Positions 30,451 to 34,802 of a DNA stretch of 37,911 nt are shown one piece after another. Every line of letters begins with the position of its first letter. Position 1 is the stretch's first letter. The notes under the pieces are model-generated. The model saw only the letters and a program-made list of their open reading frames with translations, ran no database searches and was not told the DNA's origin. The stretch is from UHGV virus genome UHGV-0078433; one strand, written 5' to 3'. The translations under genes and the position numbers were made by a program. Source of the DNA: a virus.

Positions 30451-31101
30451 ATGAATACACAACTGATGGGTGAGCGTATTCGCGCTCGCAGAAAAGAACT
30501 CAAGATTAGGCAGGCTGCCCTTGGCAAGATGGTTGGCGTGTCTAATGTTGCTATTTCCCAATGGGAGCGATCTGAAACTGAGCCCAATGGCGAAAACCTA
30601 TTGGCCTTAGCCAAGGCTTTGCAGTGCTCCCCTGATTACCTGTTGAAAGGAGAGGATAGTCTTTCAAACATTGCCTATCACAGCAGGCATGATCCAAGAG
30701 GTTCGTATCCTCTAATTAGTTGGGTAAGCGCAGGATGTTGGATGGAAGCTGTAGAGCCATATCATAGGCGTGCAATAGATAACTGGTACGACACAACGGT
30801 AGATTGTTCTGAAGACTCTTTTTGGCTCGACGTTAAAGGCGATTCAATGACTGCCCCGGCAGGACTGAGTATTCCTGAGGGGATGATTATTCTCGTCGAC
30901 CCAGAAGTCGAACCACGTAATGGAAAGCTGGTAGTCGCCAAACTTGAAGGAGAAAACGAGGCGACATTCAAAAAGTTAGTTATTGATGCCGGTAGAAAAT
31001 TCCTGAAACCACTCAATCCACAATACCCAATGATTGAAATCAATGGGAACTGTAAAATCATTGGCGTTGTCGTTGATGCCAAGCTAGCAAACCTTCCTTA
31101 A
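30451..31101 (+). CDS. c2: C2 repressor (LexA-like S24 family, P22-type)
   Basis: Near-identical to P22 C2 as recalled; intact GDSM and KK cleavage motifs. Confidence 0.95.
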   Translation: MNTQLMGERIRARRKELKIRQAALGKMVGVSNVAISQWERSETEPNGENLLALAKALQCSPDYLLKGEDSLSNIAYHSRHDPRGSYPLISWVSAGCWMEAVEPYHRRAIDNWYDTTVDCSEDSFWLDVKGDSMTAPAGLSIPEGMIILVDPEVEPRNGKLVVAKLEGENEATFKKLVIDAGRKFLKPLNPQYPMIEINGNCKIIGVVVDAKLANLP

Positions 31102-31415: not shown

Positions 31416-31721
31416 ATGGTAACCATTGTCTGGAAAGAATCCAAAGGTACGGCAAAAAGCCGCTACAAAGCTCGCAGAGCAGAACTTATTGCCGAGCGAC
31501 GCAGTAATGAAGCACTGGCGCGAAAAATTGCGCTAAAGCTCTCTGGTTGCGTCAGAGCAGACAAAGCAGCATCACTAGGAAGCCTTTGCTGCAAGAAGAA
31601 AGAAGAAGTCGTTCGAAAAAATAGAAGTATTTATTACAAAGATTCAAACCCGTTAGGAAACAAAATACATGCAGTCCAAAAAATAAAATTGTACAGTAAA
31701 CTACCGTACGGTGCTTATTGA
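31416..31721 (+). CDS. N-type antiterminator (P22 gene 24-like) with arginine-rich motif
   Basis: ARM GTAKSRYKARRAELIAERR resembles the P22 N peptide GNAKTRRHERRRKLAIER (recall); start at MVTIVW with GGAG RBS rather than track start 31386. Confidence 0.7.
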   Translation: MVTIVWKESKGTAKSRYKARRAELIAERRSNEALARKIALKLSGCVRADKAASLGSLCCKKKEEVVRKNRSIYYKDSNPLGNKIHAVQKIKLYSKLPYGAY

Positions 31722-32062
31722 GTATGCTTATGGTGAAAAAGACTATTTATGTTAATCCTGACCGCGGACAAAACAGAAAAGTATCTGATAGAGGTCTTAC
31801 ATCTCGAGACAGGAGGAGAATAGCGAGATGGGAAAAAAGGATAGCATATGCATTAAAAAACGGTGTAACACCTGGATTTAATGCTATAGATGACGGTCCG
31901 GAATATAAGATTAATGAAGAACCAATGGACAAAGTTGACAAAGCATTAGCAACACCATTTCCTCGCGATGTAGAAAAAATTGAAGATGAAAAATATGAGG
32001 ATGTAATGCACAGAGTTGTTAATCACGCTCACCAACGAAATCCAAATAAAAAATGGTCATAG
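31718..32062 (+). CDS. Hypothetical AT-rich moron protein downstream of N
   Basis: ORF track; followed by its own terminator. Confidence 0.5.
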   Translation: MSMLMVKKTIYVNPDRGQNRKVSDRGLTSRDRRRIARWEKRIAYALKNGVTPGFNAIDDGPEYKINEEPMDKVDKALATPFPRDVEKIEDEKYEDVMHRVVNHAHQRNPNKKWS

Positions 32063-32855: not shown

Positions 32856-33026
32856 ATGCAACAGTTCGCTATTGCAGGGGCGGCATCGGTTCGCCCTTTC
32901 AACCCGATTTTATCGGTACAGCATTCACGAAAAAATATTTTAACCGGAGCAGACTTTAAACAACCAAGAATGAAAAGTTTGCTCGAAAAGCTTTGGGATA
33001 TTTTGAAACAACAAGGCCGTCCATGA
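32856..33026 (+). CDS. c3: CIII-type protease inhibitor (c3)
   Basis: MQQFAIAG...KLWDILKQQGRP resembles lambda CIII MQYAIAG...LIDILNQPGVP; internal start chosen because the track's N-terminal extension contains a terminator. Confidence 0.7.
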   Translation: MQQFAIAGAASVRPFNPILSVQHSRKNILTGADFKQPRMKSLLEKLWDILKQQGRP

Positions 33027-33193
33027 GTTTTACGGATAACTGGTCAGACGAAGAATTCATTCGTCAGATGAAAGAATTAATCGGTAACGAAGGAGATATT
33101 CATGTCACTTGCAACCACGGTGAAGGAGAGCAAGTTACAGAGACGCATGTACACGCAGCAGGCGTTAATGTATCGCCAGAAGGGAGATCGTGA
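33023..33193 (+). CDS. Hypothetical 56-aa protein (kil position)
   Basis: Start overlaps c3 stop (ATGA); acidic; identity unknown. Confidence 0.45.
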   Translation: MSFTDNWSDEEFIRQMKELIGNEGDIHVTCNHGEGEQVTETHVHAAGVNVSPEGRS

Positions 33194-33280
33194 AGGTGTT
33201 CGCGTATTTTTGAATGCGGCAAAGACTGAAGTATTAAATCAGCGTTATTTCCTTGGGCCATGTCCATTCTGAGGTGAATT

Positions 33281-33988
33281 ATGGATTTGAACAAATTCGA
33301 TGAGCCATTCAGCCCTGAAGATATCGAATGGCGAATACAGCAAAGCGGTAAAACACGCGATGGAAAGGTGTGGGCTATGGTGCTGGCTTATGTCACGAAC
33401 AGGGCAATCATGAAACGCCTGGACGATGTTTGTGGCAAAGCAGGATGGCGCAATGAATACCGCGATATTCCTAACAACGGCGGCGTTGAATGCGGCATAT
33501 CAATCAGGATTGATTCCGAATGGGTAACCAAATGGGATGCCGCTGAAAACACGCAGGTAGAAGCCGTAAAAGGTGGTCGTTCCGGTGCAATGAAGCGCGC
33601 TGCCGTTCAGTGGGGAATCGGTCGGTATCTGTATAACCTTGAGGAAGGTTTCGCACAAACATCTCTCGATAAAAAGCAGGGATGGCACAGGGCAAAACTG
33701 AAAGATGGAACAGGATTTTACTGGCTCCCTCCATCGCTGCCTGGATGGGCAATCCCAGCATCAGATAACAAACCATCACCAGAAAATACCAACCAGAAAT
33801 CACCATCGGTTGACTGCGAACAAATCCTGAAAGACTTCAGCGATTATGCGTCAACAGAAACTGACAAGAAAAAACTCATCGAGCGTTATCAGCGTGACTG
33901 GCAATTAATGGCTGGCAACGAGGAGGCGCAGGCTAAATGCGTTCAGGTAATGAACATCAGAGTTAACGAACTAAAACAGGCGGCATAA
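33281..33988 (+). CDS. Single-strand annealing recombinase: Rad52/Sak-like N-domain with Erf-like C-terminal tail
   Basis: N-domain ...GGRSGAMKRAAVQWGIGRYLYNLEEGF; C-terminal ~60 aa resemble P22 Erf C-terminus (recall). Confidence 0.75.
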   Translation: MDLNKFDEPFSPEDIEWRIQQSGKTRDGKVWAMVLAYVTNRAIMKRLDDVCGKAGWRNEYRDIPNNGGVECGISIRIDSEWVTKWDAAENTQVEAVKGGRSGAMKRAAVQWGIGRYLYNLEEGFAQTSLDKKQGWHRAKLKDGTGFYWLPPSLPGWAIPASDNKPSPENTNQKSPSVDCEQILKDFSDYASTETDKKKLIERYQRDWQLMAGNEEAQAKCVQVMNIRVNELKQAA

Positions 33989-34495
33989 ATGGCAAGCAGA
34001 GGCGTAAATAAGGTGATTATCCTTGGTCGGGTAGGACAAGACCCGGAAGTTCGATACTCACCATCAGGAACAGCGTTCGCTAACCTGACAATAGCCACGT
34101 CAGAACAATGGCGAGATAAAAATACTGGCGAGCAAAAGGAATTGACTGAATGGCATCGTGTTGCTGTATCCGGGAAACTGGCTGAGGTCGTGGGGCAGTA
34201 TGTGAAAAAAGGTGATCAGATTTATTTCGAGGGAATGCTGAGAACCAGAAAGTGGAAAGACCAGTCAGGGCAAGACCGTTACACAACCGAGGTTCATGTC
34301 GGAATTAATGGCGTGATGCAAATGCTTGGCGGCATTGGCGACAGCAAACAACAAGCAGCCAGCAGGCAATCACAGAAGCCACAGCAGCAATCATCACCAG
34401 CACAACACAACGAACCTCCGATGGATTTTGACGACGATATACCCTTTGCACCAGTAACTCTCCCCTTCCCTCGTCACGCTATTCACGCAATTTAA
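33989..34495 (+). CDS. ssb: Single-stranded DNA-binding protein with 15-residue extension beyond the DDDIPF tip
   Basis: Canonical OB-fold N-terminus ([18 protein letters not shown]); ...[11 protein letters not shown] then [15 protein letters not shown] before stop. Confidence 0.9.
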
Positions 34496-34508: not shown

Positions 34509-34802
34509 ATGCCAGCGCCTCTGTATGGTGCGGACGACGCGCGCCGCTGTTCCGGCAATTCCGTATCGGAGGTGCTGGATAAATTCAGAAAAAACTACGA
34601 TCGAATAATGTCTCTACCGCAGGAAACGAAAGAGGAAAAGGAATTTCGCCACTGTATATGGCTTGCAGAGAAAGAAGAACGCGAGCGAATTTACCAGACA
34701 TCAATCCGACCATTCCGCAAAGCCACATATACCCACTTCCCTGAAATTGACCCGCGCCTGCGTAATTACCGCTCACGCTATGGCGCTATCAGTAATGACT
34801 GA
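34509..34802 (+). CDS. Hypothetical protein
   Basis: ORF track; AGGAG RBS. Confidence 0.55.

Follow-up and report, generated by a model that had tools for sequence, protein, structure and literature searches.

A phage annealase gene that joins a Rad52/Sak-type core to an Erf-type C-terminal tail

The annealase gene at positions 33281..33988 (+ strand) of the window, the whole 37,911-nucleotide stretch of virus genome UHGV-0078433 that was analysed, is an intact open reading frame (ORF) of 235 aa and an orthologue of gene 28 of phage Sf6, and it would encode a two-domain phage single-strand annealing protein of the Sf6 gp28/ST64T Orf-235 lineage. Residues 1–159 (33281..33757, + strand) form a Rad52/Sak-type annealing core, residues 160–176 (33758..33808, + strand) a low-complexity linker rich in Pro, Ser, and Asn, and residues 177–235 (33809..33985, + strand) an Erf-type C-terminal three-helix module. 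The two-domain architecture and its mosaic origin are held here to be nearly certain, while the explanation as a whole, in which the tail would serve as a protein–protein adaptor outside the annealing machinery, is considered probable.

The core is recognized by profile, sequence identity, and predicted fold. Residues 4–136 match the Pfam family Rad52_Rad22 (PF04098) with E = 7.2e-26 and 91.4 bits, covering model positions 7–153 of 153, against a curated cutoff of 20.3 bits for this family. Residues 6–159 are 58% identical to ORF252 (Sak) of Lactococcus phage ul36 (tblastn, E = 7e-55), and the PF04098 match together with this identity places the core in the Sak subgroup of the Rad52/Rad22 family. 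An AlphaFold2 model of the full protein, built on 27 homologues, has a mean pLDDT of 84, with values mostly above 85 in the core, where strands are predicted at residues 15–24, 30–38, 56–62, 69–77, and 80–88 and a long helix at residues 93–110. When this model was compared with solved structures in the PDB by Foldseek, the 16 best matches were all yeast Mgm101 or human RAD52 (probability 0.99–1.0); model and matches both give the core the fold of the Rad52 N-terminal domain with its beta-beta-beta-alpha core. By contrast, the window protein has no match to Pfam ERF (PF04404) at E up to 1, and neither Pfam nor BLASTP assigns it a core of the ERF family, whereas the same Pfam model recovers the cores of P22 Erf (E = 4.6e-46) and HK97 Erf (E = 2.1e-44). 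The sequence-only reading had described the N-terminal ~150 residues as Rad52/Sak-like; that description is borne out, with the core extending to residue 159. From what is known of the family, such a core would assemble into rings or filaments and anneal complementary ssDNA independently of ATP.

Within the core, residues 1–128 are highly conserved and are followed by a conserved Trp/Pro-rich segment that runs to residue 159, in which W148, P151, L153, P154, W156, and P159 do not vary from enteric phages to ul36 Sak and the homologue from a Vibrio phage. This segment, GWHRAKLKDGTGFYWLPPSLPGWAIP (residues 135–159, positions 33683–33757), is predicted to form a small three-stranded beta unit and has a W-x21-W-x2-P spacing like that of WW domains. 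A WW-like unit was considered and rejected: residues 129–164 gave only a weak phmmer match to the PRP40 WW domain (E = 0.1), no Pfam WW match was found even at E = 10, and the first Trp is not conserved.

The linker stands out by low predicted confidence and low conservation. Residues 162–175 have a pLDDT below 50 in the AlphaFold2 model, and identity across the linker is 0–29% among family members, except for the closest homologue (P0003, 88%). The Erf-type tail, as defined by the alignments of this analysis, is a module of approximately 57 residues that ends the protein and is preceded by a disordered linker. In the window protein, its helices are modelled at residues 179–192, 196–209, and 214–234, the tail modelled alone reaches a pLDDT of 96, and residues 177–235 are thus predicted to fold as an independent three-helix module. 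In BLASTP comparison with P22 Erf, only residues 157–235 of the window protein align, with Erf residues 134–205 (63% identity, E = 2e-30); over the last 59 residues, identity is 72% to the tail of P22 Erf and 38% to that of HK97 Erf, while no sequence similarity between the window core and the P22 Erf core was detected by BLASTP. The window tail also aligns by hhalign with the tail of a Vibrio phage ERF protein at 98% probability. Across 141 unique tails, conservation is 90% or higher at L183, F186, A190, L199, Y203, W207, Q217, R227, E230, and L231; these are mainly hydrophobic core residues together with the invariant R227, E230, and Q217, and all of the conserved Erf-type positions are found in the window protein. 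The net charge of these tails averages −1.6 (range −5 to +2), with R227 as the single invariant basic residue. A tail HMM matches 116 of 120 Rad52-type homologues, and no Pfam model matches the tail. A marginal match of 24 residues to the coiled coil of colicins E3/E2/E9 (E = 0.008 in a profile search of PDB sequences) was judged compositional or due to chance. Searched domain by domain, the protein thus separates into two parts from two families, a Rad52_Rad22 core and a P22 Erf-like tail, and the likeness of the last ~60 residues to the P22 Erf C-terminus, pointed out from the sequence alone, comes down to 57–59 structured residues (72% identity) plus a weakly similar linker.

The tail is also delimited at the DNA level. 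The window shares with the 3′ end of P22 erf a patch of homology at 33836..33988 (+ strand), from codon 186 to the stop codon, in which 123 of 153 nucleotides are identical (80%; blastn, E = 6e-30), and blastn showed no further similarity between window and P22 DNA elsewhere in the gene, in the 200 nt before it, or in the 300 nt after it. The module of Salmonella phage BTP1, which consists of arf, a Rad52-type ‘erf’, abc1, and abc2, is homologous to that of P22 as far as arf extends, unrelated to it over the core, and 95% identical to it from codon 186 through abc1/abc2, which makes codon 186 the same junction in the window/P22 and BTP1/P22 comparisons. The homology between the window and BTP1 stops exactly at the stop codon, and an SSB gene stands in the window in place of abc1. 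With one junction at codon 186 and the linker and the other at the stop codon, the tail stands as a mosaic unit of its own that reaches from the linker to the gene end. The reverse pattern is seen between P22 and HK97, whose DNA is 82% identical over the ERF core and loses similarity at P22 codon 135, their Erf proteins being 92% identical in amino acids over the cores and 39% over the tails. In 26 diverse Rad52-type homologues, the core is 69–93% and the tail 22–83% identical to that of the window protein, and the P22 Erf tail (72%) is nearer to the window tail than are the tails of 23 of these 26 family members. Four homologues considered as tail-swapped forms (P0091, P0024, P0098, and P0116) were rejected as frameshifted or truncated copies. 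Taken together, it is strongly supported by these sequence comparisons that core and tail have been reassorted repeatedly by mosaic recombination, and the domain shuffling suggested in the sequence-only reading holds, given the differing divergence of core and tail and the sharp DNA junctions at codon 186 and the stop codon. Any individual exchange may have run in either direction; P22 Erf itself has the look of a recombinant and might with as much right be named the chimera. The window gene is not a one-off chimera either; it belongs to an old and abundant lineage present in many Enterobacterales genera.

A vertical history has been weighed against this mosaic one, in which there would be no chimera at all and the tail would simply be the best-conserved part of a two-domain ancestor inherited by distantly related annealases. 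Such a history would suit the placement of Erf, Sak, and Redβ in one Rad52-like superfamily (Lopes 2010), the match of PHROG 1097 to the whole protein as a single family, and the age of the tail, which is found on ERF cores of both Vibrio and enteric phages. It is hard to reconcile with tails that are 72% identical while their cores have no detectable sequence similarity, with a shared DNA patch of 80–95% identity that has sharp edges, with the opposite pattern in P22 and HK97, and with the case of ul36 Sak and the Vibrio Rad52-type protein, which have the core in common but not the tail. The vertical ancestor is therefore given only the slightest chance and is effectively refuted by the sharp DNA junctions, and an assembly artefact is implausible across many independent genomes.

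The distribution of the tail differs from that of the cores that carry it. By tblastn, the tail was found in 167 phage records, all from phages of Enterobacterales, of which approximately 93 have it on a Rad52-type core, approximately 22 on a P22-type ERF core (assigned by identity bands), and approximately 50–55 on HK97-type or other ERF cores. The Rad52/Sak-type core occurs in 166 phage records, including those of Lactococcus, Vibrio, and others, and the ERF core in 563, including those of Streptococcus, Lactococcus, Vibrio, Gordonia, and others. Annealases with a Pfam ERF core that carry the tail include those of P22, HK97, Klebsiella phage RCIP0098, Erwinia phage 49, and Morganella phage IME1369_01, and also a Vibrio phage ERF protein, while the tail was not detected on ul36 Sak (hhalign, 1%) and not convincingly detected on the Vibrio Rad52-type protein (hhalign, 7.6%). 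On present data, the tail is restricted to gammaproteobacterial phages (Enterobacterales and Vibrio), where it is found on two cores that are both far more widespread. Of the two, the ERF core carries the tail over the broader range, which makes ‘Erf-type tail on a Rad52/Sak core’ a fair description. The Rad52-plus-tail architecture is present in many Enterobacterales genera; the gene was found in 401 of 5,426 complete E. coli genomes, where it is annotated as ‘Rad52/Rad22 family DNA repair protein’, with copies in E. coli chromosomes that are 99.9% identical. A phmmer search with the tail alone against 1.84 billion representative proteins returned 16 matches, mostly fragments, the 67-aa query being too short for a set of that size. 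A tail profile run against a set of 5.8 billion proteins returned 35 matches, again mostly fragments (‘recombinase, partial’ and ‘ERF family, partial’), with both core types represented and no new architectures.

The closest known relative is Sf6 gene 28, with 98% nucleotide identity over all 708 nt and 100% identity in the core as well as in the last 62 residues, and identity of approximately 98% at the nucleotide level is also found to mEp235, mEpX2, and HK75. The same gene is known as ST64T Orf-235, ES18 gp49, and epsilon34 gp36 and is present in HK75, mEp235, and mEpX2. The window protein resembles ul36 Sak in its core, including the Trp/Pro-rich motif, and in the ssb gene that directly follows the annealase, but differs from it at the C-terminus, as the C-terminal region of ul36 Sak is unrelated to the Erf-type tail (hhalign, 1%). 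With P22 Erf and HK97/HK022 Erf, it shares the three-helix tail, the linker-plus-tail layout, and the position in an early-left module upstream of abc2; however, the P22 core is Pfam ERF and the window core Rad52_Rad22, and P22 has Arf upstream, Abc1 downstream, and no SSB. The window protein matches PHROG 1097 over its full length (E = 6.5e-130), and the GenBank note on Sf6 gene 28 reads ‘similar to phage P22 Erf protein’. Since the core has neither a PF04404 match nor BLASTP similarity to Erf, the ‘Erf-like’ label used by PHROG 1097 and in RefSeq phage annotation reflects the tail and the gene position, not the core. The common annotation ‘Erf-like ssDNA annealing protein’ is thus wrong for the core, which is of the Rad52/Sak type. 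The gene family, its likeness to P22 Erf, the Rad52/Rad22 call (Pfam and RefSeq), and the sharing of the tail (published in 2021) are already known.

The surrounding genes are a lambdoid early-left recombination module, with the order gp42-like small ORF, annealase, SSB, abc2, and an Ead/Ea22-like gene. A Shine-Dalgarno sequence read from the DNA, GAGGTGA (33271..33277, + strand), has its GAGG at 33271–33274, 6 nt before the annealase ATG, and shares bases with the stop codon that ends the ORF before it. The annealase TAA abuts the ATG of ssb, whose first base (33989) is the next one, and with no gap between the two, the annealase, ssb, and their neighbours are tightly packed in one operon; the annealase had been placed immediately upstream of the phage SSB already on first inspection of the sequence, and so it is. 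The small upstream ORF (33102..33272, + strand; 56 aa) occupies the same slot as Arf in P22 and is gp42-like, with 82% identity to Sf6 gp29 and 60% to HK97 gp42, and the window DNA is 86% identical to that of HK97 over 33023–33273, which covers this ORF. It is unrelated to P22 Arf, and no Pfam family matched it. The gp42-like and Arf-like small proteins are unrelated in sequence, and either type can precede annealases of the Rad52 type as well as of the ERF type. The recombination module ends with abc2 (34509..34802, + strand), an anti-RecBCD gene (Pfam Anti-RecBCD_p2, E = 5.6e-63) with 85–94.5% nucleotide identity to abc2 of P22, BTP1, and HK97. Upstream of the module, just downstream of a cI-like repressor ORF (30451–31101), a 114-aa ORF (31718–32062) matches (E = 9e-71) a PHROG that carries the annotation of a Nun-like transcription termination factor.

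The adjacent SSB gene (33989..34495, + strand) encodes 168 aa with a Pfam SSB match of E = 1.6e-36 and is 99.8% identical in nucleotides to the SSB gene of HK75. The canonical E. coli-type motif DFDDDIPF is internal in this protein and is followed by 15 extra residues, encoded by the last 45 nt of the gene. This extension is 100% identical in the SSB of epsilon34 (L012:1201-1707) and absent from the SSBs of Sf6, a Morganella phage, and ul36. As in the window, the annealase of Sf6 precedes SSB and abc2, but in Sf6 (L002:4709-5671), the SSB ends right after a free IPF, and an HNH endonuclease gene is inserted at this point; the window is endonuclease-free, as are HK75, mEp235, and epsilon34. The last 14 aa of the window SSB are the C-terminus of this Sf6 endonuclease (gp26), an identity that places the Sf6 endonuclease gene in frame within the 3′ end of ssb. 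In epsilon34, gp34 (L012:1716-2264; 182 aa), annotated as a 3′–5′ exoribonuclease, lies between ssb and abc2. The slot between ssb and abc2 appears to be an insertion hotspot, occupied by the exoribonuclease in epsilon34, by the HNH endonuclease in Sf6, and by nothing in the window.

As for what the tail does, a protein–protein adaptor is the likely role. The model with which the field works, and for which Redβ is the sole established case, has annealase C-terminal domains bind a partner exonuclease and the tail of host SSB. The Erf-type tail would most likely bring the annealase to ssDNA coated with SSB, or to some other factor common to gammaproteobacterial hosts, a role parallel to that of the unrelated Redβ C-terminal domain, which serves lambda Exo and host SSB. 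The modelled combination of a flexible linker and an independent fold would favour such a role, as would the mainly hydrophobic conserved positions with the invariant R227, E230, and Q217 and the acidic average charge. It also fits a tail found in no phages but those of Enterobacterales and Vibrio, although both of its cores occur far more widely. The Erf C-terminal domain is reportedly dispensable for ring formation and DNA binding and required in vivo. Binding of host SSB by the tail is plausible by analogy with Redβ, and SSB may be named the leading candidate for the tail's partner, with somewhat less than an even chance of being the right one. The sequence-only reading had found the position next to the phage SSB consistent with a conserved SSB-interaction tail, but this adjacency is a weak argument because the same tail is found in P22 and BTP1, which have no phage SSB and have abc1 next instead. 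The adjacent SSB is weak evidence of a partner also because its acidic IPF tail is buried under the conserved 15-residue extension, and the independent variation of neighbour genes and tail type counts against the SSB-interaction reading in general. Moreover, the SSB C-terminal peptide is nearly invariant across these hosts, and the fast divergence of the tail, down to 22% identity, would be unexpected if this peptide were its sole partner.

That same divergence would suit co-evolution with a variable phage partner, and the tail might bind such a partner instead of host SSB, be it Abc2-modified RecBCD, an Arf/gp42-like protein, Abc1, or the cognate phage SSB. Abc2-modified RecBCD takes the functional place of an exonuclease here, all the enteric tail-bearing modules examined (window, Sf6, P22, HK97, BTP1, and epsilon34) contain abc2, a small ORF always precedes the annealase, and the binding of its exonuclease by the Redβ C-terminal domain offers an analogy. 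A comparison by hand of the neighbours in 12 modules speaks against such a partner: abc2 is not found beside the tail-bearing annealases of Klebsiella phage RCIP0098, Erwinia phage 49, Morganella phage IME1369_01, and Vibrio phage 1.213.O, a P22-type tail occurs with Arf and Abc1 in P22 and BTP1 and with a gp42-like protein and SSB in the window and Sf6, the HK97-type gp42 accompanies a very different tail, and HK620-type modules have abc2 and SSB but a Sak4 annealase without an Erf-type tail. A phage partner in place of host SSB is thus regarded as unlikely. Still lower stands the proposal that the tail is an auxiliary DNA-binding helix-turn-helix (HTH) domain, the label given by Steczkiewicz et al. 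2021, which is considered quite improbable although its three-helix topology would allow an HTH. With an average net charge of −1.6, the tails are acidic, a property that speaks against DNA binding, only R227 is invariantly basic, and no Pfam HTH model matches even at E = 10. The Redβ C-terminal domain is, moreover, documented as a protein-binding module, and P22 Erf fragments without the tail are said to bind DNA still.

The adaptor role proposed here is modelled on lambda Redβ, which likewise has a small helical C-terminal domain, a flexible linker, and a Rad52-like annealing core, and for whose C-terminal domain (PDB 6M9K) binding of both lambda Exo and host SSB is documented. The likeness would be one of function, as hhalign detected no sequence homology between the tail and the Redβ C-terminal domain (0.8% and 3%). 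Fold searches with the tail return generic matches, and the tail HMM matches none of 120 Redβ-core proteins. Foldseek of the tail against predicted viral structures gave no significant match, and 8 of its 50 top rows, none of them significant, were annealases of the ERF, Sak3, and RecT families. Many proteins of the Redβ family have a core 65–80% identical to that of lambda Redβ and unrelated tails, which form at least three clusters (27, 19, and 7 sequences). In the 7-member cluster with a Redβ/RecT core (P0273, P0274, P0275, P0279, P0282, P0285, and P0287), the tail aligns to helices 2–3 of the Erf-type tail (hhalign, 81%, E = 1.2e-5), and on the strength of this alignment tail swapping seems to be general among annealase families. 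A C-terminal domain common to distinct annealase families has been described and attributed to domain shuffling (Steczkiewicz et al. 2021), and the possible third (Redβ/RecT) core agrees with that qualitatively. The Erf-type tail may then belong to a wider set of exchangeable three-helix adaptors, tethered by flexible linkers to at least three cores (ERF, Rad52/Sak, and some RecT/Redβ), that would set the choice of host or phage partner in place of the annealing core, a tentative and rather doubtful extension of the findings.

The annealase of the window is a clean and well-bounded natural case of domain-level mosaicism inside a phage gene, although its practical value is modest. The recombineering field still asks what annealase C-terminal domains do outside Redβ, and the annealases of the Sf6 type and the P22/HK97 type, with versions of one tail, are a ready-made swap experiment on these domains. 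If the wider set of exchangeable adaptors is real, the 15-residue SSB extension that masks the IPF would, as a corollary, change which SSB recruits the annealase, and the exchange of tails would give phages a natural means of changing host or partner and provide a rational basis for porting recombineering enzymes.
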